A stretch of DNA of 64,000 nucleotides from Methanobacteriota archaeon (GTDB taxonomy: Archaea > JAADCQ01 > Methanopyri > Methanopyrales > Methanopyraceae): positions 64,001 through 128,000 of the forward strand of contig JAMOPO010000052.1 of assembly GCA_027064425.1 (NCBI GenBank), given 5' to 3'. Below are positions 11,919-64,000 of the stretch, in pieces. Position 1 is the first letter of the stretch. Each line of letters opens with the position of its first letter. The position numbers and the translations under genes were made by a program. The notes under the pieces are model-generated. The model ran no database searches and was not told the DNA's origin. It saw only the letters and a list, made by a program, of their open reading frames with translations.

Positions 11919-13154
11919 CTAACCCGGTCTGAACCTTAGCAACGCTCCGAGCCCGTTAAACGCCTGGTGGAACTGCGCGCCCTCCTCCGTCTCGGTTGAA
12001 ATTATCTCCACCCGAGCACCCATCTGCTCCGCCAGCTCGATGTAGTAATCCACGATCTCCTTAACGTCCTCCACCTCCAGCTCCGCCTCCCCGCACTCCG
12101 GGCACTCGCCGACGCGCTCCTCCACCTCCTCCTTCTCCCGGACCGTGATCACCTCCTCGTGCCCGCACTCCGGGCACCGGAGCACGGCCTTGTAACCCTC
12201 CAGCTCCTCCGAGATCAGCAGCGTCTCAACGGCGCCCATCCGGAGCATCCGCTCGACCTCGTCCTCACCGTACGCCGCCAGCTCCCCGTTGACCGCCTCC
12301 TCCATGAACTTCCGCACCAGCCGCTTCTCCCGGACCAGCTCCGCCTCCTTGAGCGCGTCCTCCGCCTTGTCCAGCGCCTCCCGAATGCCCGACTCGTCGG
12401 TGTTCCCGATGTCGACCACGGCGATGACCTTCTCCTTCAGGTCCTTGGGTAGGTAGTCCCCGTCCAGGAACTCCTCCTTCGTCGGGCCGGGCCCGCCCAC
12501 GATGATGCCCTTCAGGTTGTCCACCTCCTCGAAGACCTCCCGCGCGGCCTCCCCCACCTCCTGGTAGAACTCGTGCGCCGCGTGCTCGATCAGCCGGTCG
12601 AAGCGGCGCTGCGACTGACCTCCGGCCTTGTGCTTGCCCGGCACGTCGGACTTGAGCTGCTTCTTCACCTCGATCCGCTTGCCCTTAACCAGCCCGATGG
12701 TCGCCTCGCGGCGGTCCATGACCAGGACGCCGTAAACGTCCTTCTCCTCGAGACACTCCTTCAGCGGCTCCAGGTAGAACTTCGAGTCGCAGCGGTAGAT
12801 GAACCGGTCCACGGGCTCCGGCGGCTCGATGAGCTCGGCCACCATCTTCTCCTTCGTCCCGTCCTTGACCATACCAACCAGCACGACCAGCCCGTTCTCC
12901 GGCGTCTCACCCACGGTTTTAAGCCTCTGAATGACCACTTCGATGGCGGACTGAACGTTCTTTCGAGTCCTCTTGCTCTTGATATTGCTGGCCTGTGAGT
13001 ACTCCTCCCTCATCATCGCGATCACATCACTAAGTCGCTTCTCCGGCGGGATGTATATCGTGATTAGCTCCGTGCCCTCACCCTCGAGGCTCTCCAACCT
13101 TTCTAGCATTTTTTTGAACTTGTACCGCTCGACGGTCTCGGACGCCGTCCCCAA
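11919..13154 (-). CDS. prf1: Peptide chain release factor aRF1
   Basis: ASNIKS (NIKS) and GGQSQRRF motifs, YRCD, Zn ribbon; TTG at 13154 with GGGGGA SD. Confidence 0.96.
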   Translation of the reverse strand: MGTASETVERYKFKKMLERLESLEGEGTELITIYIPPEKRLSDVIAMMREEYSQASNIKSKRTRKNVQSAIEVVIQRLKTVGETPENGLVVLVGMVKDGTKEKMVAELIEPPEPVDRFIYRCDSKFYLEPLKECLEEKDVYGVLVMDRREATIGLVKGKRIEVKKQLKSDVPGKHKAGGQSQRRFDRLIEHAAHEFYQEVGEAAREVFEEVDNLKGIIVGGPGPTKEEFLDGDYLPKDLKEKVIAVVDIGNTDESGIREALDKAEDALKEAELVREKRLVRKFMEEAVNGELAAYGEDEVERMLRMGAVETLLISEELEGYKAVLRCPECGHEEVITVREKEEVEERVGECPECGEAELEVEDVKEIVDYYIELAEQMGARVEIISTETEEGAQFHQAFNGLGALLRFRPG

Positions 13155-13181
13155 CGCGGTTCCCCCGGGGGGTGGTCGAGG

Positions 13182-13853
13182 TTGTACGCGGTCGTGGCCC
13201 TCGGTGGGTCCGTGCTCAACGTGGAAAACCCGGACCGGGTCCGGAAGGCCGCTGATCTGATCTCTGAGGCGCTGGAATCCGGGCTGAAAATCTGCGCCGT
13301 CGTCGGTGGAGGGCCCGTCGCCCGTGAGTACATAAACGTAGCGCGAGAGCTCGGAGCGCCCGAGACGGCCCTCGACGAGCTGGGCATCGCCGTCACCCGG
13401 CTGAACGCCGCCCTGCTCAACCTGGCCCTCGGCCGGCCCGAGGCCGACGTCCCGGAAACCCCCGCGGAGGCCGCGGAAACGGTGCGCCGGGAGGGCGTGG
13501 CCGTCTGCGGCGGCACGCACCCGGGCCACACCACCGACGCCGTCGGGGCCATGATCGCCGAGCTCCTCGAGGCGCCGCTGATCATCGTCACCAACGTCGA
13601 TGGCGTCTACGACCGCGATCCGAGCGAGCCCGGGGCCCAAAAGCTCCGGGAGCTGGACGCTGACGAGCTCGAGCGGCTGGCCTTCGAGGCCGACCTGGAG
13701 GCGGGCGGCAGCTTCGTGGTCGACCCAGTCGCCGCCAAGATCATCCGGCGCGGCCGCGTGACCACCCACGTCCTGTCCTGGGATGACTTCAAAAGCGTCG
13801 GGATAGAGGGCGCCCTCAAAGGCAGGCACGGGGGCACGATCATCCGGGGGTAG
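13182..13853 (+). CDS. pyrH: Uridylate kinase
   Basis: LGGSV, VVGGG, GGTHPGHTTDAV, TNVDGVYDRDP. Confidence 0.95.
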   Translation: MYAVVALGGSVLNVENPDRVRKAADLISEALESGLKICAVVGGGPVAREYINVARELGAPETALDELGIAVTRLNAALLNLALGRPEADVPETPAEAAETVRREGVAVCGGTHPGHTTDAVGAMIAELLEAPLIIVTNVDGVYDRDPSEPGAQKLRELDADELERLAFEADLEAGGSFVVDPVAAKIIRRGRVTTHVLSWDDFKSVGIEGALKGRHGGTIIRG

Positions 13854-30228: not shown

Positions 30229-31134
30229 ATGGGCGAGGAGTCTCGAGAGCCCGAGGAGCCCAGGCTCGGTGTCCTGACCCGGCACAAGGTGTCCGATTTC
30301 GTTCGGCACGGAGCCATCTCCGTCAGTCCCGACGAGCCGCTGTGGAACGCCCTCAAGGCGATGGTTACGCACGACATCTGCGGCGTCGCGGTGATGGATG
30401 GGTCGGAGATCGTTGGCGTGTTCGAGGAAGACGACTTGCTCCGCGCGCTTCGAGCGCTCGAGGGCGAGGCGCTTGCGGCCGAGGTAAGGCGGTTCATGAA
30501 GCCCGGCGTGGTGGTCCGGTCGGACGACACGCTGCGAGACGCGATGGTGGAGATGCTGAAGGGTGGGGCCACCCGGGCGTTCGTGCGCTCCTCGGGCCTC
30601 ATCCGCGGTGGTGTGTACGGGGTCATCTCGGCCTCGGATATCGTGCGCGTGCTGACGGGCGACTACCGCGGAACCCGCGTCCCGAAGACCGACCGGCCCG
30701 TGGCGCTGCCCCCGCGCATCAACGCTCTCAGGGCCGCCGGGGACGTGCTGGTTGAGGACATCGTGAAGGCGTCGCCGCTGACGCTCGACGCCTCGAGCTC
30801 CGTGGCTGACGTCGCCCGGCGCATCAGCGAGTCCGGCAGGCGCTACGCGGTCCTGCTCGAGCGCGAGTCTCCGATCGGGCGCATCGGCGACCGGGACGTG
30901 ATGGGTGCAACCTTAGACGCGATTTTAGACCGGCGGAACCTGGACGATCTCGCGGCGAGGGACTACCTGCAAGAGATAGTGACCGCGGCTCCCGACACGC
31001 TACTTTCCGAGGCCTTGTGGGAGGTCGTCGACAGGATGTCGGATCGAATATACGTGATCGAAGGTAAGGCTCTAGTCGGGGTAATACCGCTGATAGATGC
31101 CGTTTACACACTGGCCAAGCTGGCGAGTGAGTGA
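30229..31134 (+). CDS. CBS-domain protein (two CBS pairs)
   Basis: Repeated CBS motifs (VSPDEPL..A, IVGVF, YGVISASDI, LVGVI). Confidence 0.8.
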   Translation: MGEESREPEEPRLGVLTRHKVSDFVRHGAISVSPDEPLWNALKAMVTHDICGVAVMDGSEIVGVFEEDDLLRALRALEGEALAAEVRRFMKPGVVVRSDDTLRDAMVEMLKGGATRAFVRSSGLIRGGVYGVISASDIVRVLTGDYRGTRVPKTDRPVALPPRINALRAAGDVLVEDIVKASPLTLDASSSVADVARRISESGRRYAVLLERESPIGRIGDRDVMGATLDAILDRRNLDDLAARDYLQEIVTAAPDTLLSEALWEVVDRMSDRIYVIEGKALVGVIPLIDAVYTLAKLASE

Positions 31135-31189
31135 ACGCTTCGAAGGAGTCGGCCGGGCGGGAGTGAGGCTGGTTGAGGGGGAGTGAGCA

Positions 31190-32392
31190 ATGGCTAACCT
31201 GGACTGCTGCGTGGTGAGCGGTGACGACCCCAGAGGCGTCGCGGAAGAAACCGTCAGCAGGCTCGGTGATAGGGCCGACTTCGGGGTCGTCTTCTTTCAC
31301 GACGTGGATCCCGAGGACGTCGTCTCCGAGCTAAGTCACGGGGTCGAGCGGTTCATCGGCTGCGTGGCCGCGGAGGGGCACTGGCCGGGGTCGGTTAGGG
31401 GACACAGGATCAGCCTACTCGCGCTGAAAACGGGGTGGATGGCGAAGTTCGGCACGGGAGGCTCCACGCACCGTGACCTCGGGAGGGCCTCGCGCAGCGC
31501 GATGGAGGAGGCTCTCCGTGACCTAGAATTCGACCCCTACGACGTCTCCTACTCGGCGCTGAACCTCAGAGACCCCAAGAAGATAGCCACGTATCGGCCC
31601 GTCATCGGGATGGCCCTCGTCGACGGGGTCGCGTTCCATAACTCGGGTGGGACGGGGCTGGAGGTCCTCTCCGGTTTCCAGATCGGGAGCGGGCCGGGCG
31701 CCGAGAACGTCCGCACGTTCGGCGCGCTGTCGAGCGACCCGGAGTTCGAGAGCGCTCCGGTGGTATGCGACAAGGGGGTCTTCGAGCGCGGGATCGTTTA
31801 CGCGGCCATCTCTACGTTCCTGAAGGTAGATTGGTCCTCCGCCTCCTCCCTGAAGCCGGTGGCGGAGCTGGGCACGGTGACCGAGAGCGAGCGGAACGTG
31901 ATCGTGGAGATCGACGGTAGGCCGGCCGGTGAGGTTTACCTGGAGAAGCTGGAGGAGATCATCGGGGATGGAGAGGACGTCCCGTGCGGCGGCGAGCACG
32001 TTTACAAGGACTTTCCGCCCGTCGGGGTGGCCAGGGTCCTGCCCCCGATCGGTCGGCGGATCACCCCCAGAACGCCGCTGGAGGTCACCGAGGATTACAT
32101 ACGAACGGCCGGTTACGTGGTGGAGGGAGAGCGGCTCCTCCTGCTCGAGTTCGAGCGGCGCCCGAACGCGCCGATGGAGGCGTACCGGGAGTCCCTCAGC
32201 TCCGGCGGCGAGCCGCTCGCCTCCGTGCTGGCGACGTGCGCCGGTCGTAAGCCGCTGCGGGAGAAGCTGCCGGATAGGCACTGCGTGGGCATGTACTCGT
32301 TCGGGGAGATCGCTCCGACCGCCGGCTGCAACGAGTTCTACAATCACGCCTCCGTGTGCCTGACGATCTTCCGAGAGCCCGTGTTCGAGTGA
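31190..32392 (+). CDS. FIST-domain protein
   Basis: LVDG, IVEIDGRPA, TCAGR, GMYSFGEI, FYNH. Confidence 0.82.
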   Translation: MANLDCCVVSGDDPRGVAEETVSRLGDRADFGVVFFHDVDPEDVVSELSHGVERFIGCVAAEGHWPGSVRGHRISLLALKTGWMAKFGTGGSTHRDLGRASRSAMEEALRDLEFDPYDVSYSALNLRDPKKIATYRPVIGMALVDGVAFHNSGGTGLEVLSGFQIGSGPGAENVRTFGALSSDPEFESAPVVCDKGVFERGIVYAAISTFLKVDWSSASSLKPVAELGTVTESERNVIVEIDGRPAGEVYLEKLEEIIGDGEDVPCGGEHVYKDFPPVGVARVLPPIGRRITPRTPLEVTEDYIRTAGYVVEGERLLLLEFERRPNAPMEAYRESLSSGGEPLASVLATCAGRKPLREKLPDRHCVGMYSFGEIAPTAGCNEFYNHASVCLTIFREPVFE

Positions 32393-32441
32393 CCGGCAAA
32401 GTGATAATCCCCGCGGTCCGGGCGGCCCGGGGTCGCGGGCG

Positions 32442-32954
32442 TTGAGGGAGGTGATCCGGGGCCGAGTCTGGGTCTTCGGTGACAACATCGACACGGATCA
32501 GATCATCCCGGGCCGGTACCTGACCACGCAGGACCCGGAGGAGCTGGCGAAGCACGTGATGGAGGGCGCGGACCCGGAGTTCCCGGAGAAGGTCCGGGAG
32601 GGTGACATCATCGTCGCGGGCCGGAACTTCGGGTGCGGCTCCTCCCGGGAGCACGCGCCGATCGCGCTCAAGGCGGCGGGGATCGCGTGCGTGGTCGCCG
32701 AGTCCTTCGCCCGAATCTTCTACCGGAACGCCGTGAACCTGGGGCTACCCCTGATTACCTGCCCGGGCGTCGCCGACGCGTTCGAGACGGGGCACGAGGC
32801 GGAGGTCCGACTGACCGAGGGCGTGATTCGGAACCTCACGACCGGAGAGGAGCTGGAGGCGAAGCCGCTCCCGGAGTTCATGATGAGGATCCTCGAGGCG
32901 GGCGGGCTGGTTGAGCTGATCCGTGAGCATGGGCCGGAGGCGCTGGAGGGGTGA
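32442..32954 (+). CDS. leuD: 3-isopropylmalate dehydratase/homoaconitase small subunit
   Basis: GDNIDTDQIIPGRYL, NFGCGSSREHA, SFARIFYRNA; could be the hacB/dmdB paralogue. Confidence 0.9.
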   Translation: MREVIRGRVWVFGDNIDTDQIIPGRYLTTQDPEELAKHVMEGADPEFPEKVREGDIIVAGRNFGCGSSREHAPIALKAAGIACVVAESFARIFYRNAVNLGLPLITCPGVADAFETGHEAEVRLTEGVIRNLTTGEELEAKPLPEFMMRILEAGGLVELIREHGPEALEG

Positions 32955-32958
32955 TCCC

Positions 32959-33966
32959 GTGTACGAGATCGCGGTGGTGCCCGGGGACGGGATCGGCCCC
33001 GAGGTCATCGAGGCCGCTCTTCACGTGATCGACCCCCTGATCGACGCCGAGTTCGTGGAGTGCGAGGCGGGTGACGAGTGCGCGGAGAAGCGCGGCGATC
33101 CGCTGCCCGAGGAGACGCTGGAGACCTGCCGCGAGGCCGACGCGGTGCTGTTCGGGGCCGCCGGTGAGACCGCGGCCGACGTCATCGTCCGCCTGCGGCA
33201 GGAGCTGGACCTGTACGCGAACGTTCGGCCCGTCCGCGGCTTTGAGGGCCTGCGGGAGCTCACGGGCGAGCCGTACGTGCGCGACGACGTCGACCTCGTG
33301 ATCGTGCGCGAGAACACGGAGGGCCTGTACTCCGGCGTGGAGGGGCGCTTCCGGGACGCTGCCTACACGCTGAGGATCATCACGGAGGAGGGCGCCAGGC
33401 GGATCGCGGAGATCGCGTGCGACATCGCCGAGGACCGCGGCGCCGACACGGTGACCTGCGTGCACAAGGCGAACGTGATGCGGGAAACGTGCGGCCTATT
33501 CCGGGACGTCTGCAAGGAGGTCGTCGAGGAGCGGGGCCTGAAGTTCGAGGAATACTACGTGGACGCCGCCGCCATGTTCCTGATCACCGAGCCCGAGCGC
33601 TTCGACGTGATGGTCACGCCGAACATGTTCGGCGACATCCTCTCGGACGAGGCCGCGGCACTCGTCGGCGGACTGGGGCTGGCGCCGAGCGCGAACCTGG
33701 GTGAGGAGCACGCGCTGTTCGAGCCGGTGCACGGGTCCGCGCCCGACATCGCCGGCAAGGGCATCGCCAACCCCATCGCCGCCATCCTCTCCGCCGCCAT
33801 GATGCTCGAGTGGCTCGGGGAGAAGGAGGCGGCGGAGGCCGTCTGGGAGGCCGTCGGCGACGCCATCCGGGAGAGGTGCGTGACCCCTGACCTGGGCGGA
33901 GACAAGCGGACGATGGAGGTTGCCGAGTTCATCCGTGAGCGGGCGCTCAGCCGGGTCGAGAGCTAG
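32959..33966 (+). CDS. Isopropylmalate/homoisocitrate dehydrogenase family protein
   Basis: PGDGIGPEV, RENTEGLY, HKANV, NMFGDILSD, EPVHGSAPDIAG; leuB versus aksF not resolved. Confidence 0.93.
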   Translation: MYEIAVVPGDGIGPEVIEAALHVIDPLIDAEFVECEAGDECAEKRGDPLPEETLETCREADAVLFGAAGETAADVIVRLRQELDLYANVRPVRGFEGLRELTGEPYVRDDVDLVIVRENTEGLYSGVEGRFRDAAYTLRIITEEGARRIAEIACDIAEDRGADTVTCVHKANVMRETCGLFRDVCKEVVEERGLKFEEYYVDAAAMFLITEPERFDVMVTPNMFGDILSDEAAALVGGLGLAPSANLGEEHALFEPVHGSAPDIAGKGIANPIAAILSAAMMLEWLGEKEAAEAVWEAVGDAIRERCVTPDLGGDKRTMEVAEFIRERALSRVES

Positions 33967-34252
33967 CCCCGCCGGCTCCCCCGGCCCTCCCTTTCCCACC
34001 CCCGGTCACGCCCTGTGAGGACTCACCGCTTCCCGTCACACCGACGTCCTTCACGTTCGTCCTGCCCGCTATCTGCGAGGGTGAGAGCGGGTGGGGCTTC
34101 CTGTGCTCCAGCTCCGGGGGCAGCTTCACGACCTCCCGCGACCGCTTCTCCTCGATCTCTTTCTTGACGGGTGAAACGCTGATGAACCCGGCCGCGGCAC
34201 CCACCAGGAACCCGAAGGCGGCGACCAGCTTCAGGAGCGTGTGCGTGCTCAT
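33947..34252 (-). CDS. Small membrane-anchored hypothetical protein
   Basis: ATG at 34252 with GGGAGG SD; N-terminal TM helix; Gly/Ser-rich tail. Confidence 0.5.
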   Translation of the reverse strand: MSTHTLLKLVAAFGFLVGAAAGFISVSPVKKEIEEKRSREVVKLPPELEHRKPHPLSPSQIAGRTNVKDVGVTGSGESSQGVTGGGKGRAGGAGGASSRPG

Positions 34253-34278
34253 CCTCCCGATCACCCGGGGTCCCGCTC

Positions 34279-34989
34279 ATGCCGTCCGTCAAAATGACCA
34301 TCGGGGCCCGCGGGGCCGCGGAGGCCGCGCTCAACGATGACGTCGTGATCATCGTGGACGTCGTCAACACCTCCTCCGCCGCCGAGGTCGCCCTCCGGGG
34401 CGGCGCCGTGGCCGTGATCGGGGCGGCCCCCGACCGCGCCTACGAGGTGCTGGTGAAGAAGCGGGCCACGAAGTACCCGTTCGCGGACACCCCGAAGGGC
34501 GTCGACCCGGTGGAGCGCGGCCGCGAGGCCGGAAAGATCGCGCTGGAAAACGACACCGAGGTCGTCCTGGTCGTGGACGGTGGCGAGGAGAACGCCAGCA
34601 TGGCCGCGCAGGGCGTGGAGGAGGTGGGGGCCGAAATCGCCGAGATCGTCCCCAACGCGGGACCGCGCATCAAGGACGTGGTCGACCTGTCCGACCGAGT
34701 CTTCCTCTTCGCCACCGCGACGGGCGGCACGCTGTACGACGTGGCCCGCACGCACGGGGCGCCCGCCGTCACCTTCGGGACGGTCGTGCGGCGCTCCCTT
34801 ATCCGGGCGTGCGCGGAGCGGGCCATCCGGCTCGCTGAGCGCCACAACGCCGGGATCTCCGTCGTCGTCTCCTCCATCTTCGCCCCCGAGGACCTCGACG
34901 CGGGCGCCAGGATTTTCGAAGAGGTGTGCAAGATCATCACTGAGGGCGTCTGCGAGGAGCGGTTCGAGGAGGTCGTCAGCTCGCTTTAG
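34279..34989 (+). CDS. ComB-like (2-phosphosulfolactate phosphatase family) protein
   Basis: [24 protein letters not shown]. Confidence 0.65.
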
Positions 34990-35000
34990 GGGGACTCGGG

Positions 35001-36209
35001 TTGGGTTACATCGACAAGTACCCGGACGAGAACGGCTACTTCGGCGAGTACGGCGGCCGGTTCGTGCCCGAGACGCTCATGCCCGCGCTCGAGGAGCTGG
35101 AGGACGCGTTCAGGGAGGCGCGTGAGGATCCCGGCTTCTGGGAGGAGCTCGAGGAGTTGTGGAGGAAGTACGCGGGCCGGCCGACCCCTCTTTACTACGC
35201 CAGGAACCTGTCCCGCCGGCTCGGGGTGAAGGTGTACCTCAAGCGGGAGGACCTCGTGCACGGGGGCGCGCATAAGCTCAACAACACGCTGGGCCAGGCC
35301 CTGCTGGCCGATCGAATGGGCAAGGATCGGCTCATCGCCGAGACGGGTGCGGGTCAGCACGGTCTCGCCACGGCGATGGCGGGCGCGGCCCTGGGCAAGA
35401 AGGTCGAGATCTACATGGGCGCGGTGGACGTGAAGAGGCAGAGGCACAACGTGTTCAGGATGGAGCTGATGGGGGCCAAGGTTCACCCCGTCAAGTCCGG
35501 AACGCAGACGCTGAAGGATGCCATCAACGAGGCCCTCCGGGACTGGATCACGAACTTGGAGACCACGCACTACCTCCTCGGCTCCGTCGTGGGCCCGCAC
35601 CCGTACCCCTGGATGGTCCGCGAGTTCCAGCGCGTAATCGGCCGGGAGACCAAGCAGCAGATCCAGGAGCTGGAGGGGGGCCTGCCGGACGCGATCGTGG
35701 CCTGCACGGGCGGCGGCAGCAACTCGATCGGGATCTTCTACGACTTCCTGGACGACGAGGAGGTCGCCCTGTACGCCGTCGAGGCCGCGGGTAAAGGGCT
35801 GGACACCGGGGAGCACGCGGCCTCCCTGTGCGCGGGCAAGACCGGCGTCCTGCACGGGTGCCGGACCAAGGTTCTGCAGGACGAGAACGGGCAGATCAAG
35901 ACCACGCACAGCATCGCGCCGGGTCTCGACTACCCCGGGGTCGGCCCCGAGCTGGCGTTCCTGGTCGACGAGGGCCGCGTCATCGCGGACGCGGTCACCG
36001 ATGAGGAGGCGCTCAAAGGCTTCGTGATGCTCAACGAAACCGAGGGCATCCTGCCGGCGCTTGAGTCCGCGCACGCGATTTATTACGTCAAGAAGCTGGT
36101 GGACCGGGGCGAGCTGGACCACGGCGACGTCGTGGTCGTCAACCTGTCTGGCCGCGGGGATAAGGACGTGAAGATCGCGGCGAGGGAGCTGGGCGTGTCC
36201 ATCGACTAG
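35001..36209 (+). CDS. trpB: Tryptophan synthase beta chain
   Basis: [40 protein letters not shown]. Confidence 0.97.
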
Positions 36210-36212
36210 ACT

Positions 36213-36599
36213 TCACTTGGGCCTGATCCGGAACTCGCAGTGGTCGTCCCCCGCCAGCCGGCAGCGCTCCTCGCTGACCTCCATCTCGGTCTCGTAGTAC
36301 AGCTCCGCGAGCCTGCGGAAGAGCGCCGCCTCAAACCGACACGCCGGGGAACCCTCCACGTCGATGTCCGGGTTCTCCTCGTAGAAGTCCGCCGTGACCG
36401 TGGTCTCCACCCGGACCACGATCTCCTCCACGCTGCCGCCGCTCTTCTTCACCTCGATGTCCACGCCGTCCATTCCGAGGCCCTCGAGCGTTTCAATCAG
36501 CTCGTCAATGGAGTCCCAGCCTTTCCGGAAGATAATCTCGGCGAACTCCTCACCCTTCTCCTCCGACTCCTCCTCCAGCTCGTCAAACGACAGCTTCAA
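36213..36599 (-). CDS. V4R-domain protein
   Basis: PACRFEA..EERCRLAGDDHCEF; TTG at 36599 with GGGGTG SD. Confidence 0.75.
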   Translation of the reverse strand: MKLSFDELEEESEEKGEEFAEIIFRKGWDSIDELIETLEGLGMDGVDIEVKKSGGSVEEIVVRVETTVTADFYEENPDIDVEGSPACRFEAALFRRLAELYYETEMEVSEERCRLAGDDHCEFRIRPK

Positions 36600-36612
36600 G
36601 GGGGCGCACCCC

Positions 36613-36978
36613 GTGCGGTACTTCGAGAATATTACGGACCGGGAGCGCGCCATCTTCGAGGCCGGCATCACCCTCGGCGCGATCTATCATCAATTCTCCG
36701 GTACGCCGGTATCGCCGGAGACGGCGGACGAGGTGGCGCGGTGCATCGAGCGCGCCGCGGAGCTGCAGCCCTGCGTCGAGCGGGCCGAGGTGGACATCGA
36801 GGTGGAGGAGAACGACACCGACAACTACGGCGGGTACACCGAGGTCTCGGGCCGCAACCTCCGCGTTCGCCTGGTCACCAGGTGCGGGGACTGGGAGGCC
36901 GTGGCCCGGCTGGAGTTCGTCGAGGAGCTCAACTACCCGCTGATGTGGATCGAGGAGGTCAGGAGGGTGCGCGATTGA
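36613..36978 (+). CDS. mptD: Archaeal dihydroneopterin aldolase
   Basis: YF..ITDRERAIFEAGITLGAIYHQFSGTPV, GYTE, LNYPLM. Confidence 0.9.
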   Translation: MRYFENITDRERAIFEAGITLGAIYHQFSGTPVSPETADEVARCIERAAELQPCVERAEVDIEVEENDTDNYGGYTEVSGRNLRVRLVTRCGDWEAVARLEFVEELNYPLMWIEEVRRVRD

Positions 36979-38267
36979 CCGTCGTCGGCATCGCGGCGGA
37001 CTTCGATCCGCCCCACCGCGGGCACGCCTACCTCCTGGAGCGCGCCTCCGAGCTCGGGGACGAGGTGATCGTCTTCCTCAACGCGGACTACACCGCCCAC
37101 CACACCCCGCCGCTGCTGCCCTACGAGCTCCGCGCCGAGATCGCCCTCGAGCTGGGCGCCGACGACGTGCAGCCCGTGCGCGGGTACCACCAGCGCTTCC
37201 CCCTGGCCTACACGGTCCCGGTCCGCGTCGCCACCATGGCCGAGCACGGCGTGGACGTCATCCTGGACGCCGGCCCCAAGCGGAACCTGGAGGAGGTTCG
37301 ACACCACGCCGAGCGGGTCCTGAAGCGGGGTGACCTCTTCTCCATCCCCAAGCACGTGCCCGCACGGAACCTCGTCAGGTGGCTGGCCGCCGTCGAGATG
37401 GTCAACGAGCTGCTGGGCACGGAGGTGAGCCTGCGGATCGTCCCGGAGCTCCCCGGCCACTCCGGCCGGAAGATCCGCGCCACGCTCCGCCGCGCCGGGT
37501 ACTCACCGGACGCCCTGGACGACGTCAGGCGCCAGCTCCCGGACGAAACGTTCAGGAGACTGAAACGTTACCTGGCCGAGGAGCGGCCCCCGATCGCCCG
37601 CAGGGATCGGCTCCTCCGCGGCGTCAACGAGGCCCGCCCGGACCACATTTGTAGCATCGCCCACGTGAACACGCTGGCCGCCCGCGAGCTGCTGCGCGGT
37701 CGCCCCTTCCGCAGCGAGCGACAGCTCTGGGGAGCCCTGAGACGGGCGGGGTACGGGTCAGTCCTCACCCGACTCGCCCTCGCCAACCTGGAGTGCCGGG
37801 TGACCTCCGCGGAGCTCGCCCGAATCTCGCTGGAGTGGGTCGAGCAGGGCCTCGTCCCACCCGGTCAGAGCCCCGACCGCATGTACGAACGGGATTGGTT
37901 CGTCGCGCGCCTCTCCACCGCCGGCGTGCGGGCCCGGAAGGCCGACGAGCTGTTCCGGAGCACCGGCTCCTACGAGGAGGCCGCGGCCAAGGCCCGCGAG
38001 CGGTACGGCGTCGACCCGGGCCGCCCCAGAACCCTCGTCCGCATCGGCGCAGCCGACGCCCCGGACGGGACGTACCGCCCGGCCGTGGACGCCCGGGGCA
38101 CCTTCGGAGTGCTCCCGGACGACCGGTTCGTTCGGCTGGAGCTCACCGCCTTCGGGGCCACCCTGCTGCGCTACGTCATCGACGACCCGTTCGTCGAGGC
38201 CTGGGTCCGCGTGGAGGACACGGAGGCCTGGCTCGAGGTCTTCCCCGGGGGTCGCCTCAAAGGTTGA
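36975..38267 (+). CDS. HIGH-family nucleotidyltransferase
   Basis: GIAADFDPPHRGH, YTAHHTPP, SGRKIR; TTG overlaps the mptD stop. Confidence 0.8.
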   Translation: MTVVGIAADFDPPHRGHAYLLERASELGDEVIVFLNADYTAHHTPPLLPYELRAEIALELGADDVQPVRGYHQRFPLAYTVPVRVATMAEHGVDVILDAGPKRNLEEVRHHAERVLKRGDLFSIPKHVPARNLVRWLAAVEMVNELLGTEVSLRIVPELPGHSGRKIRATLRRAGYSPDALDDVRRQLPDETFRRLKRYLAEERPPIARRDRLLRGVNEARPDHICSIAHVNTLAARELLRGRPFRSERQLWGALRRAGYGSVLTRLALANLECRVTSAELARISLEWVEQGLVPPGQSPDRMYERDWFVARLSTAGVRARKADELFRSTGSYEEAAAKARERYGVDPGRPRTLVRIGAADAPDGTYRPAVDARGTFGVLPDDRFVRLELTAFGATLLRYVIDDPFVEAWVRVEDTEAWLEVFPGGRLKG

Positions 38268-39472
38268 GGACCGTGTGGTTCCACCTCCACTCCAAGAATC
38301 GGTACAGCCTCGCTCACGTGCTCGGGGCCATCGAGGCCGAGGCCCCCGAGCTGCTCCCGAACGTCCGGGTGTCCAAGCGCCCCGAGCCGGAGGAGGGCGA
38401 CGTGGTCGTCTTCTCCTTCAACACCTTCATGGCCCCGGAAGTGTTCGAGCAGGTGGAGAAGCTGCCGGAGGGCGTGATCAAAGTCGCCGGCGGTCCCCAC
38501 CCCTCCGCGCGGCCCGATCAGTGCCTCGAGCACGGGTTCGACGTCGTCCTGATCGGGGAGGGGGAGGAGGTCGTCCCGGAGGTGCTCCGGGAGCTCGTCC
38601 GGGGCGAGCTGCCCGAAGAGCGGCCGGGAGTGTACCTCGGGGAGGGGAAGCCCGAGCCCGCCCCGCCCGTCGAGCGGCTGGAGCGGTACCCGCCCTACTC
38701 CGAGGAGTTCCGCGTCTTCTGCCCCATCGAGATCACCCGGGGCTGCCCCTGGGGCTGCGCCTACTGTCAGGTTAGCCGGCTCTTCGGCCGTAAGCCGAGG
38801 CATCGGCCCGTGGAGGACATCGTCCGGTGGGTCCGCCGCGGGGTGGAGCGCGGGCACACGTTCGCCCGCTTCGTCGCCCCGGACGCCCTGGCCTACGGCT
38901 CACCCGACGGTCGCCGGCTGAGGCCGGAGAAGGTGGAGCGGCTGCTCCGCGAGCTCCGGTCCGTGGACGGGCTAGAGAAGGTCTACTTCGGCAGCTTCCC
39001 GGCCGAGGTGCGCCCGGACTCGCTGGTCCGCTCCGGGGGCGCCGAGCTCATCGCTCACTACGCCGACAACGAGCGGGTGAACATGGGGGCGCAGTCCGGC
39101 AGCGAGCGCGTGCTCCGTAGGATCGCCCGGGGACACACGGTGGAGGACGTGCGGCGGGCCGTAGAGGAGTGCCTGGAGCAGGGGCTTAAGCCGGTCGTCG
39201 ACTTCATCTTCGGGCTGCCGGGGGAGACGAAGGAGGACCAGTGGAGGTCCGTCGAGCTGGCGGAGTGGATCATCCGGCGGGGCGGGGAGGTACGTCTCCA
39301 CTACTTCATGCCGCTGCCGGGAACGCCCCTGGAGGACGAGGAGCCCGCACCGCTGGACCCGGAGATCCGCAGGGTGCTGGGCCGGTGGACGCAGAGGGGG
39401 AAGGCGGAGGGAGCCTGGGGTCACCAGATGAGACTGTCCGAGACAGCGAGGAAGGTGTTGGCGGAGTCTTGA
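38264..39472 (+). CDS. B12-binding/radical SAM protein (TIGR04013-like)
   Basis: AGGPHPSA, EITRGCPWGCAYCQ, GSFPAEVRP, GAQSGS, FMPLPGTP. Confidence 0.88.
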   Translation: MRTVWFHLHSKNRYSLAHVLGAIEAEAPELLPNVRVSKRPEPEEGDVVVFSFNTFMAPEVFEQVEKLPEGVIKVAGGPHPSARPDQCLEHGFDVVLIGEGEEVVPEVLRELVRGELPEERPGVYLGEGKPEPAPPVERLERYPPYSEEFRVFCPIEITRGCPWGCAYCQVSRLFGRKPRHRPVEDIVRWVRRGVERGHTFARFVAPDALAYGSPDGRRLRPEKVERLLRELRSVDGLEKVYFGSFPAEVRPDSLVRSGGAELIAHYADNERVNMGAQSGSERVLRRIARGHTVEDVRRAVEECLEQGLKPVVDFIFGLPGETKEDQWRSVELAEWIIRRGGEVRLHYFMPLPGTPLEDEEPAPLDPEIRRVLGRWTQRGKAEGAWGHQMRLSETARKVLAES

Positions 39473-40245
39473 CGGAGCGCGACGTGCACGTGACGATCCT
39501 GTTCCCGGAACCCCTCGAGCGTCGCGTGCTCTCCGCCCTACGCGACCTAACCGCGTTCCTGCGAAACACCGTCGGTGTCAGGGAGGTGGGGGTCGGGACC
39601 GTCGAGAACCCTCCCGAGTACGTCAAGTGGCTGGAGGAGCGGGTCGGGGGTCACGTCGCCGAGGAGGCCTTCCAGGCCCTCACCGGGCGTTCGGGCGCCC
39701 TGGCCGTTCGAATCAGCGAGAGCGAGTACCACGTGATCGTGGGGCCCGCGTACGAGTCCCGGAGGTTCCTGCGCGCCGGCCTAGCGCACGAGTTCGCCCA
39801 CATCCTGCAGCACCGGTTGGGGCTGTTCCCGCGCGGGATCAGGGCCCCGGCCGGCGCCGCCCGGTCGGTCCTGCTGCCGCTCGAGGTTGGGGCCGAGGAG
39901 CTGGTGCTTCGGGATCTGCCGGACGTCGGCGAGGCGAGGATCGAGCTGGCCCGGCGCGAGGGGCGGGAGTGGCACCGGACGGGGGATCCGCTCCTGGATC
40001 TCGAGAACTCGCTCGTCGCCGCGCCGGTGAACCTGGCCCTGAAGCGGTTGGGTGAGGAGGTCCGGGTCCCGGAGCCGGAGGTGGACGACGAGGAGATCTC
40101 GAAGGTTCGGGACCGGCTGGTGCGGGCCGCCGCCGAGACCGACCCCTGGGACCGGGACCAGGTGCGCGAGTACGTGGAGTGGGCCACCGGGGTCCTCCTC
40201 CGCTGGCTCGCGGATCAGCGCCGGCACCAGTCCACCATCGACTGA
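39469..40245 (+). CDS. Putative zinc metallopeptidase-like protein
   Basis: LAHEFAH motif with a downstream Glu; TTG overlaps the upstream stop. Confidence 0.6.
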   Translation: MTERDVHVTILFPEPLERRVLSALRDLTAFLRNTVGVREVGVGTVENPPEYVKWLEERVGGHVAEEAFQALTGRSGALAVRISESEYHVIVGPAYESRRFLRAGLAHEFAHILQHRLGLFPRGIRAPAGAARSVLLPLEVGAEELVLRDLPDVGEARIELARREGREWHRTGDPLLDLENSLVAAPVNLALKRLGEEVRVPEPEVDDEEISKVRDRLVRAAAETDPWDRDQVREYVEWATGVLLRWLADQRRHQSTID

Positions 40246-54976: not shown

Positions 54977-56023
54977 CTAGGAGAACCCCAGCAACCCGAG
55001 TAATAGGGATAACGGGAGGCCACCCACCACCAGGAACGCCGCCCCCACGACGGACCCGAGCTCACCCACGAAGCTGCCGATGGACGGGTAAGCCGGGTCC
55101 AGGTCCGAGAGCGCGTCCATCGCCAGGACCAGCCCCAGGAGCCCGCGCCACGGTTGCGGCACGAACGGCAGCACGGCCAGCCAGAAGGCCACGGTCGCCG
55201 GCCCGATCGCCCCCCTGCGCCACGGGGGCCCTACCACGGACAGGTTGATCCCCGCCCCGATCCCGGGGAACACGTAGGGCCACCTCACTCGCACCTCCAG
55301 CCCGAGGACGTGCGCGATGAGCAGCTTAGAAACGTCCACCAGGAGCCGAAACGGCGCGAGCAGCAGCGTGGACCCGACCTCCGTGAGCAGCCTCCTTAGG
55401 GCACCGCGCGGGTTCTCCAGCGCCGCGATCCCGGCCGCGAACAGGGCCAGCCCCACCTCGACCGCGTACCGCTCCGCCGGGTACCTGCCCTGCAGCACCG
55501 CGAAGAACCCCTTCCAACCGTCCAGCAGGGTTCCCATGACCTCCTCCGGCAGCAGGTTCTCCAGGTTGCTCAGCGCCGCACCGAAGGCCGCGTCCGGGTC
55601 CAGCGGTGCCAGCAGCGCGGCCGCCAGCGCGCCCACCACCGGGCCGGCCATCGCCTCGTCCGCCTCCCGGTAGTCCAGCCCGGAGAGCACCTCACTCGGG
55701 TTCACGGCGTACCCCCACTCCGCCGCTCGAACCAGCTCCCGCAGCTCCTCCTCCGCCAGACCGGGAGGGTAAGGGCCCACCGTCACGAACCCGGTCGGGG
55801 GCTCGGCCCGCACCTCCAGCCAGCTCCCGTCCCCGAGCTCCATGACGAGCCGTGGGGTCGGGCCCGCCTCCACCCACCAGGAGCGGATCCCGCCGTGATA
55901 GCTCGCCGTCACCAGGGCGTGGCCCAGCTCGTGCGCCAGGACGGAGGCCGAGGTGACCAGCAGCCCCGTCCCCGGGTTCTTCGCCGCCAGCACAGCCAAT
56001 AAGACCGGCCCGACCGCGTCCAC
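54977..56023 (-). CDS. Site-2 protease (M50-like) membrane metallopeptidase
   Basis: AHELGH, AGP, NLLP..LLDG, several TM helices; GTG at 56023. Confidence 0.75.
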   Translation of the reverse strand: MDAVGPVLLAVLAAKNPGTGLLVTSASVLAHELGHALVTASYHGGIRSWWVEAGPTPRLVMELGDGSWLEVRAEPPTGFVTVGPYPPGLAEEELRELVRAAEWGYAVNPSEVLSGLDYREADEAMAGPVVGALAAALLAPLDPDAAFGAALSNLENLLPEEVMGTLLDGWKGFFAVLQGRYPAERYAVEVGLALFAAGIAALENPRGALRRLLTEVGSTLLLAPFRLLVDVSKLLIAHVLGLEVRVRWPYVFPGIGAGINLSVVGPPWRRGAIGPATVAFWLAVLPFVPQPWRGLLGLVLAMDALSDLDPAYPSIGSFVGELGSVVGAAFLVVGGLPLSLLLGLLGFS

Positions 56024-56036
56024 GCGGGGATCCCCC

Positions 56037-56831
56037 GTGAGGATCATCACCCTGACGACGGATTTCGGCTGGTCCTCGCCCTACCCCGCCCAAATGAAGG
56101 CCGTGATCTTCCGCCTCTCCCCGCCGGGAGTCGAGGTCGTCGATGTCACGCACGGGGTCCCGCCCCAGGACATCGTCTCGGGCTCTTACGTGATGGCTGT
56201 CGCCTGCCCCTGGTTCCCGGAGGGCACCGTGCACGTGGGCGTGGTGGATCCGGGCGTGGGAACCGAGCGGCGTCCCCTCCTGCTCGAGACCGCCCGCGGG
56301 GACGTGCTCATCGGCCCCGACAACGGGTTGCTCCTGCCCCCGGCCGAGGAGCTGGGCGGGATCGAGCGGGCGTACCGGATCTTGGAGGACGAGGTGAGCG
56401 AGTGGGAGGTATCCGCCACCTTCCATGGCCGAGACGTGTTCGCGCCCGCGGCCGTTCGCGCGGCCGTGGGTGAGGACCCGGAGGAGTTCTGCGAGCCCCT
56501 TGAGCCGGAAGAGCTGGAGGAGCCCCCCATCCCGGAGCCGGAGGTGGAAAAGGACCGTATCAGGGCGCACGTCTGGTACGTGGACGACTTCGGAAACCTC
56601 ATCACGAACCTGGAGTGGGAGCGCGTAGACCTGCCCGACGAGGTCACGGTGAGGACGCCGTCCGGCGAGCGCCGGGCCCGGCGCGTCAGGACCTACGGGG
56701 AGGCCGAGCCCGGCGACCTCGTCGTCCTCAGCTCCTCCTCCGGTCACCTGGAGATCGCGGTGGTCGAGGGGAACGCGTCCGAGGAGCTCGGGCTGAAACC
56801 CGGTGACCCCATCGAACTACTGCCGGAGTAG
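56037..56831 (+). CDS. SAM hydroxide adenosyltransferase (DUF62, chlorinase/fluorinase family)
   Basis: ITLTTDFG, VVDPGVGTER, GPDNG, TFHGRDVFAP, DDFGNLITN. Confidence 0.92.
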   Translation: MRIITLTTDFGWSSPYPAQMKAVIFRLSPPGVEVVDVTHGVPPQDIVSGSYVMAVACPWFPEGTVHVGVVDPGVGTERRPLLLETARGDVLIGPDNGLLLPPAEELGGIERAYRILEDEVSEWEVSATFHGRDVFAPAAVRAAVGEDPEEFCEPLEPEELEEPPIPEPEVEKDRIRAHVWYVDDFGNLITNLEWERVDLPDEVTVRTPSGERRARRVRTYGEAEPGDLVVLSSSSGHLEIAVVEGNASEELGLKPGDPIELLPE

Positions 56832-62907: not shown

Positions 62908-63321
62908 CTACTCGTCCCCTACCACCGTGACCAGGACCCGTCTCGTTCGTGGTCCATCGAGCTCCACGAACAGCACCGACTGCCAGGTCCCCAGCACCGG
63001 AGCACCGTCCGAGACGGGAAGGGTGACGGAGGATCCCAGCAGGATCGCCCGGAGGTGAGCGTCCGCGTTGTTGTCAACCTTGTCGTGCTCGTACCCCGCA
63101 CCCTCCGGGACCAGGTCCTCGAGCTTGTTGACCACGTCCTTGAGCAGGCCGGACTCCGGCTCGTTCACGATCACACCTGCCGTCGTGTGCCGGGAGTACA
63201 CGTGCACGATGCCCTCGCGGATGCCGCTCCCCTCCACCGCCTCCCTCACATCGTCCGTGATGTCCACGAGTTGAACGCGCCGCTCGGTCTTTACCGTCAG
63301 CTCCGTGCGGTACACCGCCAA
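62908..63321 (-). CDS. yjbQ: YjbQ/UPF0047 family protein
   Basis: HTTAG, NADAH, LGTWQ, ELDGPR. Confidence 0.92.
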   Translation of the reverse strand: MAVYRTELTVKTERRVQLVDITDDVREAVEGSGIREGIVHVYSRHTTAGVIVNEPESGLLKDVVNKLEDLVPEGAGYEHDKVDNNADAHLRAILLGSSVTLPVSDGAPVLGTWQSVLFVELDGPRTRRVLVTVVGDE

Positions 63322-63350
63322 ACCGCACACCCCGGGGGGATGACGCTGTC

Positions 63351-64000
63351 GTGCCGCTACCCACCCCGCACGTGGAGCAGCCCCTGAAGCTCATCGGCTC
63401 GGTCGTTATAGCGTTGATCCTGGTCAAACTCGCCGCCCGAGCGGCCGGGACCATCCGGGACCGGCTGGAACGGGAGGACCTCCCCGACCTAGCCTGGTGG
63501 GCCGAGAAGTCCATCCTGTACGGCACCTACCTGATCGCGCTGACGACCGTCCTGGAGTCGCTCGGAATCAGCATCTGGGCCCTAATCACCGGCCTCGGGC
63601 TGGCCGGGGCCGGAGTCGCCGTAGCCGCCAGGAAGCTCCTCGCCAACATCATCTCGGGCCTCTACCTCGCCGTAGAGCGCCCCTTCGAGGTGGGCGACCG
63701 CATCCGAGTGGGCGACTATCAAGGCGAGGTGGTGGACATCCGCGTCCGATGCACCGTGCTCCGTCACCGCGGTCGAGACCTCATCGTCCCGAACTCCATC
63801 CTCGTCGAGGAGACGGTCGAGCGGCTCGACGCGAGGGAGGAGGTCGACCTGCGCGTCCGCGTCCCGGGCCCCGCGACCGAGGTCAGGCGCCTGATCGACC
63901 GGCTGGAGGAGGAACTTAAAAAGGCCGGGGCGGAGCACCTGAGCCTGGAGGTCGAGCACCTGGAGCCCGGGGAGGCCCGGCTGCGGATCCGCTCCCTCGG
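63351..64000 (+). CDS. Small-conductance mechanosensitive channel (MscS family), truncated by the window edge
   Basis: Not in the ORF track; GTG at 63351, TM helices, GLGLAGAGVAVA, NIISG..L..ERPFEVGDRI, VPNS. Confidence 0.88.
   Translation, partial: MPLPTPHVEQPLKLIGSVVIALILVKLAARAAGTIRDRLEREDLPDLAWWAEKSILYGTYLIALTTVLESLGISIWALITGLGLAGAGVAVAARKLLANIISGLYLAVERPFEVGDRIRVGDYQGEVVDIRVRCTVLRHRGRDLIVPNSILVEETVERLDAREEVDLRVRVPGPATEVRRLIDRLEEELKKAGAEHLSLEVEHLEPGEARLRIRSL

Follow-up and report, generated by a model that had tools for sequence, protein, structure and literature searches.

Divergent genes normally need at least 100 nt between them to accommodate two promoters, and divergent promoters have reportedly been classified by Beck and Warren. 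The junction described here is 13 nt long. It lies in a stretch of 64,000 nucleotides from a Methanobacteriota archaeon of the Methanopyraceae, a heat-loving methanogen (GenBank assembly GCA_027064425.1, contig JAMOPO010000052.1, positions 64,001 to 128,000), hereafter the window, and separates a gene for a V4R-domain protein from mptD, the gene for an archaeal dihydroneopterin aldolase. Within these 13 nt, each of the two divergent genes has a G-rich run resembling a Shine-Dalgarno (SD) site on its own strand, and the two runs are interlocked.

In bacteria, divergent genes are described with overlapping or face-to-face promoters and with overlapping 5' untranslated regions (UTRs), arrangements of the excludon type (PMC3551857, PMC3386247). 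The present locus resembles the excludon type in its head-to-head genes, in promoters that would lie past each other's start, and in the possibility of complementary 5' ends and of competition between initiation complexes. It differs in that the overlap would be a 12-17-nt leader composed of two ribosome-binding sites, in its discrete sizes, in its occurrence in about one fifth of divergent pairs, and in being known from sequence alone. A second relative, from the Thermococcales, is the bidirectional promoter of Pyrococcus furiosus, in which a TATA box is flanked on both sides by a B recognition element (BRE-TATA-BRE), with 49 bp from start to start round the shared TATA (half of which is ~25 nt) and a median leader of 13 nt (PMC6640164). 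Both cases concern an archaeal hyperthermophile with short leaders (probably ~12-13 nt here), and in both TATA geometry would govern divergent initiation; in P. furiosus, however, one central TATA fires both ways, whereas no intergenic TATA is present in the 13-nt spacer.

In a survey of 530 prokaryotic genomes, divergent spacers are most often 135 bp long, average 273 bp and show no short peaks (PMC2784483). Its co-directional spacers offer a parallel, as their very short lengths are adapted to the SD motif; the effect there is co-directional, whereas the genes considered here are divergent and their spacers have a mode of 26-28 nt. Leaderless archaeal messenger RNAs (mRNAs; PMC7531240) are the remaining point of comparison: TATA-like matches ~27-32 nt before the starts would fit them, unlike the SD-like runs at canonical distance and the TTG codon with which most orthologues start. 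As for the lineage itself, Methanopyrus kandleri comes up in PMC5217627 solely in connection with a motif found downstream of transfer RNA genes, and the M. kandleri transcription starts given in PMC3695527 are confined to CRISPR loci. Searches of the openly accessible full-text literature found no description, in Methanopyrus or in other archaea, of divergent spacers that come in discrete sizes of 12-17 and 20-31 nt and consist of two ribosome-binding sites.

Read on the plus strand, the junction consists of CAA from position 36597, GGGGGCGCACCCC (36600-36612, 13 nt) and GTG at 36613-36615. The spacer holds 12 G or C and a single A, and each G-run directly touches the start codon of the partner gene (Table 1). 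An earlier note on this DNA had described this two-way site as CAA-GGGGGCGCACCCC-GTG, with 13 bp between the genes, GGGGG 8 nt before one start and GGGGTG 7 nt before the other, and the letters match exactly. It had also claimed that the geometry recurs in the window, which it does at 34262-34281 (14-nt spacer) and at 56021-56039 (13-nt spacer).

Table 1. Positions of the V4R/mptD junction, its genes and signals, and the related divergent junctions of the window.
Feature	Position	Strand	Description
V4R-domain protein gene	36213..36599	-	128 aa; TTG start 36599-36597; Pfam PF02830
Non-coding spacer GGGGGCGCACCCC, 13 nt	36600..36612	.	Separates the two start codons
GGGGG, likely SD site of mptD	36600..36604	+	8 nt ahead of GTG
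GGGGTG, likely SD site of the V4R gene	36612-36607	-	7 nt ahead of TTG
mptD (archaeal dihydroneopterin aldolase)	36613..36978	+	121 aa; GTG start; Pfam PF04038
TATA-like matches, core TAATATT 36634-36628	36621..36639	-	In mptD codons 3-9; candidate V4R promoter
Second interlocked junction	34262..34281	.	CAC, CCGGGGTCCCGCTC (14 nt), ATG; genes 33947-34264 (-) / 34279-34989 (+)
Third interlocked junction	56021..56039	.	CAC, GCGGGGATCCCCC (13 nt), GTG; genes 54977-56023 (-) / 56037-56831 (+)
Back-to-back junction	13152..13184		CAA, 27-nt spacer (C-run then G-run), TTG
Back-to-back junction	63319..63353		CAA, 29-nt spacer (C-run then G-run), GTG

Both open reading frames (ORFs) are real genes. The V4R protein carries its domain at the C-terminus (PF02830, E 1.9e-12). 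The mptD product, predicted from sequence, matches DHNA/MptD (PF04038, E 1.3e-37) with 129 bits, where the cut-off is 25, over the full length of the profile (positions 1-108 of 108), the domain beginning at residue 8 when counted from the GTG. Assignment of the V4R protein to MsvR (NF053755) was rejected: it scores 28.2 bits where 220 are required, with the C-terminal V4R part alone matching, and this sub-threshold match is the sole NCBIfam match of the two proteins. The gene caller of this analysis selects the starts at 36599 (V4R) and 36613 (mptD). Longer in-frame start candidates exist on both sides, at 36671, 36668 and 36653 for V4R and between 36394 and 36508 for mptD; aligned start codons and a spacer variation that is not in multiples of three, both across six genomes of the genus, argue against them. 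To note, the gene downstream of mptD (36975-38267, cytidylyltransferase-like) has a TTG start that overlaps the mptD stop by 4 nt (36975-36978), the usual layout of translational coupling.

The divergent V4R/mptD pair is kept in all six genus genomes, with start codons at the aligned place on both sides and spacers of 13, 15, 16, 15, 16 and 17 nt. As these lengths differ by non-multiples of 3, the spacer is non-coding in either direction. The G-run and the C-run (the partner's G-run as read on the plus strand) both persist in 6/6 genomes, and what varies is the spacer length, the loop bases and the start codons: TTG opens the V4R gene in five of the six genomes and ATG in one, and mptD starts with GTG or TTG, the latter in four of six. 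Alignment of the V4R proteins from the six genomes begins at residue 1, M1 being invariant, and the MptD protein is 121 amino acids long in each genome. Beyond this pair, mptD is present in all five other genus genomes and in 15 of the 31 genomes searched. Its adjacency to a V4R gene is found in this genus only, none of the nine mptD loci from other families having a V4R gene nearby, and no functional link between the two genes is supported.

The nature of the runs is indicated by their distribution over the genome. The window's own assembly (G000; 57 contigs, 1.54 Mb, GC 67.8%) was not found to contain a 16S ribosomal RNA gene, and the 16S 3' end was taken instead from two complete genomes of the same genus, where it reads ...GGATCACCTCC(A); GGGGG pairs with the CCUCC of this end and GGGGTG likewise pairs with the end, with one G.U each. 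Genes were called with a purpose-made caller using codon log-odds trained on 702 long ORFs (GC3 > GC1 > GC2) and greedy overlap resolution, which returned 1628 genes in G000 at a coding density of 90.6%. With starts chosen on coding score only, G makes up 50-63% of the bases at positions -13 to -8, and GGGGG, the most frequent among the strongly enriched upstream 5-mers, occurs in 29.2% of 1593 upstream windows vs 1.4% of 25165 internal start-like codons. A second start model adds a position matrix over the upstream 20 nt, and with it G reaches 73-79% at -12 to -10 genome-wide and the starts at 36599 and 36613 are selected. Depending on gene class, GGGG is found at -16 to -6 in 54-88% of called starts, vs 1-8% when the interval is moved another 50 nt upstream as a control, which exceeds chance. 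An SD-like motif at -16 to -6 also precedes 82% of 581 operon-internal genes, so the G-run acts in translation rather than as part of a promoter. The TTG start, for its part, is about as common as ATG and GTG (34% in G000, 37% in a second genome of the genus, with a start model that may over-call TTG).

The C-run (CCCC) joins the G-run only in close divergent pairs. The palindrome at the junction is therefore two sites and not one structure; a single protein- or RNA-level element was rejected for this reason and because the order of the runs is opposite in the two classes of spacers described below. Both junction G-runs, with spacings of 8 and 7 nt, inside the ~5-10 nt expected of an SD site, sit at the genome's SD position and are conserved across the genus, which upholds their earlier designation as SD sites, and both are probably used on mRNA.

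The V4R/mptD spacer belongs to a class. When the 261 divergent pairs of G000 were counted with SD-informed starts, no gap of 3-11 nt was found, 12 pairs had gaps of 12-17 nt (hereafter interlocked), none of 18-19 nt, 7 of 20-24 nt, 42 of 25-29 nt and 6 of 30-39 nt; above 39 nt the distribution is broad, and the median of all gaps is 62 nt. A start-to-start histogram had been proposed earlier as a check on the two-way site, and it does peak at 12-17 nt (12/261), with nothing at 3-11 or 18-19 nt. The overall mode is 26-28 nt, that within the interlocked class 13-14 nt, and 61 of the 261 pairs have at most 29 nt between their start codons. The interlocked form (12-17 nt) reads, in most spacers, start, G-run, 2-5 nt, C-run, start, and the back-to-back form (20-31 nt) reads start, ~7 nt, C-run, 0-4 nt, G-run, ~7 nt, start. 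The identical pipeline applied to a complete same-genus genome (G001; 1,421,621 nt, GC 58%) gave 242 divergent pairs, of which 9 lie at 12-18 nt, none at 0-11, none at 19-22 and 46 at 24-32 nt. As a control, the pipeline was run on 400 kb of a genome that belongs to a different archaeal family (GC 37%) and has an SD signal of its own; it contained 77 pairs, none below 36 nt and with a median of 144 nt; the short classes are therefore not a product of the caller.

From 1313 reciprocal best hits, 171 divergent neighbour pairs are conserved between G000 and G001. Eleven of them have gaps of 12-18 nt in G000: in G001 five are still interlocked, two have become back-to-back (14 to 26 nt and 15 to 28 nt) and the remaining four are affected by start calls. 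Among the 36 conserved pairs with gaps of 24-32 nt in G000, 24 keep their class, and the conserved pairs in G001 include one at 19-23 nt and none at 0-11 nt. In the 17 pairs whose two proteins have alignments starting no later than residue 3 in G000 and G001 alike, the spacer difference is not a multiple of 3 in 11, a multiple of 3 in 4 and zero in 2. A third, broad hump of gaps at ~57-83 nt is seen in G000; it roughly fits two 13-nt leaders round one shared TATA (starts ~50 bp apart).

These size classes can be understood as a matter of packing. Two ordinary SD-plus-start modules, one per strand, would have been pushed together until they interlocked, the mptD G-run lying flush with the start codon of V4R and the V4R G-run flush with that of mptD. 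A run of 5 nt would need ~7-12 nt to its own start codon, and a G-run and the partner's C-run could not occupy shared bases, spacers being otherwise squeezed to the minimum. Back-to-back placement would then need at least ~20 nt, and interlocked placement a spacer of 5 nt plus the spacing, that is 12-17 nt; 18-19 nt would fit neither form, and below 12 nt a run would intrude on the first codons of the partner. Such a rule would produce the observed gaps, the 13-14 nt mode and the way in which the runs stay centred as spacers lengthen, and the V4R/mptD pair would belong to a set of minimal divergent junctions that spans the genus and admits only two forms. Each transcription start would be located at or beyond the partner's start codon, with the promoter in the partner's coding sequence. 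Back-to-back junctions would correspond to two minimal leaders placed end to end, and interlocked junctions to a single shared leader length, with leaders complementary over ~13 nt. That two SD-led modules are interlocked by compaction under a rule of no shared bases, with promoters inside the partner gene, is the reading we hold to be probable, if by no means secure.

The leader complementarity is read as a by-product of compaction, not as a selected regulatory device. The earlier note had left the choice between an antisense or mutual-exclusion device and extreme genome compaction; packing explains both gap classes, that of 20-29 nt included, which favours compaction, and nothing in the analysis shows a device. 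Its further proposal that, if both SD sites are used, each promoter must lie inside the opposite gene is supported by the spacer, which at 13 nt and free of TATA leaves no room for a promoter, so that the promoters would have to lie in the partner's coding sequence.

Where promoters normally stand in this lineage can be gauged from genes with free upstream DNA. In 458 genes of G000 (at least 40 nt upstream, or at least 120 nt if co-directional), AT-rich hexamers peak sharply at -38, as does the motif AA-N3-TTWTWWA (BRE plus TATA) found by expectation maximization, and G001 has the same peak. If transcription starts ~25 nt from the TATA, as is usual in archaea, leaders would begin ~12-13 nt ahead of the start codon, at the G-run. 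Matches scoring above 4 on the position weight matrix occur at -44 to -33 in 29.8% of 312 genes with room upstream (gap of at least 40 nt) in G000 and in 21% of 324 in G001. In back-to-back pairs the corresponding values are 10.2% of 88 and 5.4% of 92, vs ~2.5% in a virtual-partner control (pooled binomial p ~2e-4). The -38 TATA inside the partner is weak in this class, with p 0.09 and 9.1% vs 2.5% above score 4. In interlocked pairs the -44 to -33 interval has such a match in 1/24 genes of G000 and 1/18 of G001 (control ~2-3%), and the -32 to -21 interval in 3/24 and 3/18 (control ~2.6%; pooled p ~7e-4, on small numbers).

Several of these observations weigh against the packing account. The separation of 12-17 from 18-23 nt depends on the SD-informed choice of starts made by a home-made caller: coding-only starts keep the 24-29 nt peak (23 pairs in G000), but turn 12-23 nt into a broad shoulder with 6, 7, 6 and 4 pairs per 3-nt bin. 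The pairing of the runs was judged on same-genus 16S, none being available from G000 itself. The canonical -38 TATA inside the partner is not enriched in interlocked pairs (Mann-Whitney p 0.75). At -32 to -21, 6 of 42 interlocked genes have a match, vs 2.4-2.9% in the virtual-partner control. At the V4R/mptD junction itself, matches scoring above 4 are centred at -27 to -29 of the V4R gene in 4/6 genomes and lie at -31/-32 of mptD in 3/6 (scores 4.9-7.5), G000 having none there for mptD. If these elements at -27 to -32 were the promoters, the mRNAs would start ~1-8 nt before the start codon, would lack their own G-run and would not overlap.

This leads to the alternative that survives best, namely that a TATA-like element in codons 3-6 of the partner, ~27-32 nt ahead, drives mRNAs that are leaderless or nearly so, starting 0-8 nt before the start codon, non-overlapping and without their own G-run; the conserved runs would then serve something else or nothing. 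The TATA-like matches hint at such very short leaders at the junction. In G000 the V4R-side candidates score 4.8 and 4.5 and are centred 27-32 nt ahead of the TTG; they arise there from Asn-Ile codons and in the relatives from Phe-Lys codons, as if the element had turned over while holding its position. The excess of matches in interlocked genes (6/42, where ~2.6% is expected) points the same way. All these matches are, however, small in number and low in score (4-7), with coding constraints as a confounder, and very short leaders would give no reason for the 12-nt lower bound seen in two genomes or for the 13-14 nt mode, and would leave unexplained the runs at SD distance on both strands and their conservation in 6/6 genomes. 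The start codons argue in the same direction. In fully leaderless Sulfolobus genes UUG is reported to be avoided (PMC7531240), and frequent TTG starts are hard to square with transcription from the start codon itself. TTG is not avoided in interlocked pairs (8/24 start codons in G000, 9/16 in G001), and the V4R/mptD junction has neither the absence of an SD motif nor the avoidance of UUG that mark leaderless mRNAs. Such mRNAs would also be expected to have a TATA box centred ~25-27 nt ahead of the start codon and a purine as first transcribed base. Overall, we consider very short leaders possible but unlikely.

Long leaders are another alternative, in which the G-runs would be used on transcripts coming from far inside or beyond the partner, for example when transcription of the plus-strand genes upstream continues across the lone V4R gene, or from a promoter ~77 nt upstream; the antisense overlap would then reach tens to hundreds of nt instead of 13. 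The local gene arrangement is compatible with this, the V4R gene and a 105-aa gene each being a single minus-strand gene inside a plus-strand array with convergent gaps of 3 and -20 nt. The best mptD-side match in G000 is indeed GAAGATAATCTCGG at -77 (score 4.3), and in back-to-back pairs matches at -80 to -57 occur in 8-9% of genes per 12-nt bin, vs a control of ~1.5%. The -77 match, however, falls inside a conserved protein segment and scores just 2.4 in another genus genome (G003), and long leaders do not by themselves explain the size classes. Single-gene directons are found in 10/12 interlocked pairs (83%) vs 65-67% in the other gap classes, a small difference at n=12; lone wedged genes were rejected as the cause of interlocking on the same grounds. 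Long leaders at this junction seem quite unlikely.

On a bolder view, about one fifth of Methanopyrus divergent pairs would run from "crossed" promoters in each other's first codons and so possess a built-in either/or switch. The 20-31-nt class would start back-to-back at the boundary between C-run and G-run, and the 12-17-nt class face-to-face, sharing a fully complementary leader of ~13 nt that holds both ribosome-binding sites; the initiation complexes could not coexist on the DNA, and the leaders could pair mutually or fold on themselves. A genus-wide switch of this kind appears distinctly improbable. The predicted hairpins of the V4R/mptD leaders (-9.0 and -7.1 kcal/mol at 37 °C) have z scores of 0.09 and -0.13 vs shuffles, and those at the second junction 0.97 and 0.25; a hairpin or RNA thermometer was rejected, the leaders being no stabler than shuffled sequences.

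Weakest is the proposal that complementary leaders or overlapping initiation complexes are maintained as a selected device for mutual exclusion or antisense coupling, which we hold very improbable: with both runs on mRNA, geometry would make 13 nt of the leaders complementary, G or C accounting for 12, and would have two initiation complexes require the same DNA, but the layout is not pair-specific (12 interlocked and ~49 back-to-back pairs of unrelated functions), some pairs change class from one species to another (14 to 26 and 15 to 28 nt), V4R stands beside mptD in 0/9 loci of other families, and leader hairpins are no stabler than shuffles (z 0.09, -0.13).

On the packing account, the spacer of 61 of 261 pairs is filled wholly by translation signals, and ~120 genes would need a promoter within their neighbour's first codons. 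Two questions follow: by what means TBP, TFB and RNA polymerase recognize promoters embedded in GC-rich coding sequence at ~100 °C, and whether initiation complexes of the two genes would contend for one piece of DNA. Gene callers could also take from the discrete spacer sizes a simple rule to fix start codons in this lineage.

The other junctions of the window illustrate both forms. The orthologous pair of the second interlocked junction has a 26-nt back-to-back spacer in G001, and the counterpart of the third, whose plus-strand gene (56037-56831) belongs to the SAM hydroxide adenosyltransferase family, has a 12-nt spacer. The minus-strand gene of the second junction (33947-34264) encodes the 105-aa protein, which has no Pfam match and has an orthologue in G001. 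This gene and the 128-aa V4R gene are both small and wedged singly into a plus-strand array that extends from 30229 to 40245. Their convergent ends are tight: 33947-34264 (-) overlaps 32959-33966 (+) by 20 nt, and the V4R gene end at 36213 (-) lies 3 nt from 36209 (+). In back-to-back junctions, as at 13155-13181 and 63322-63350, the boundary of C-run and G-run falls on or close to a CG step, which is symmetric for the two strands; speculatively, this step could act as a pyrimidine/purine initiator for both transcripts.

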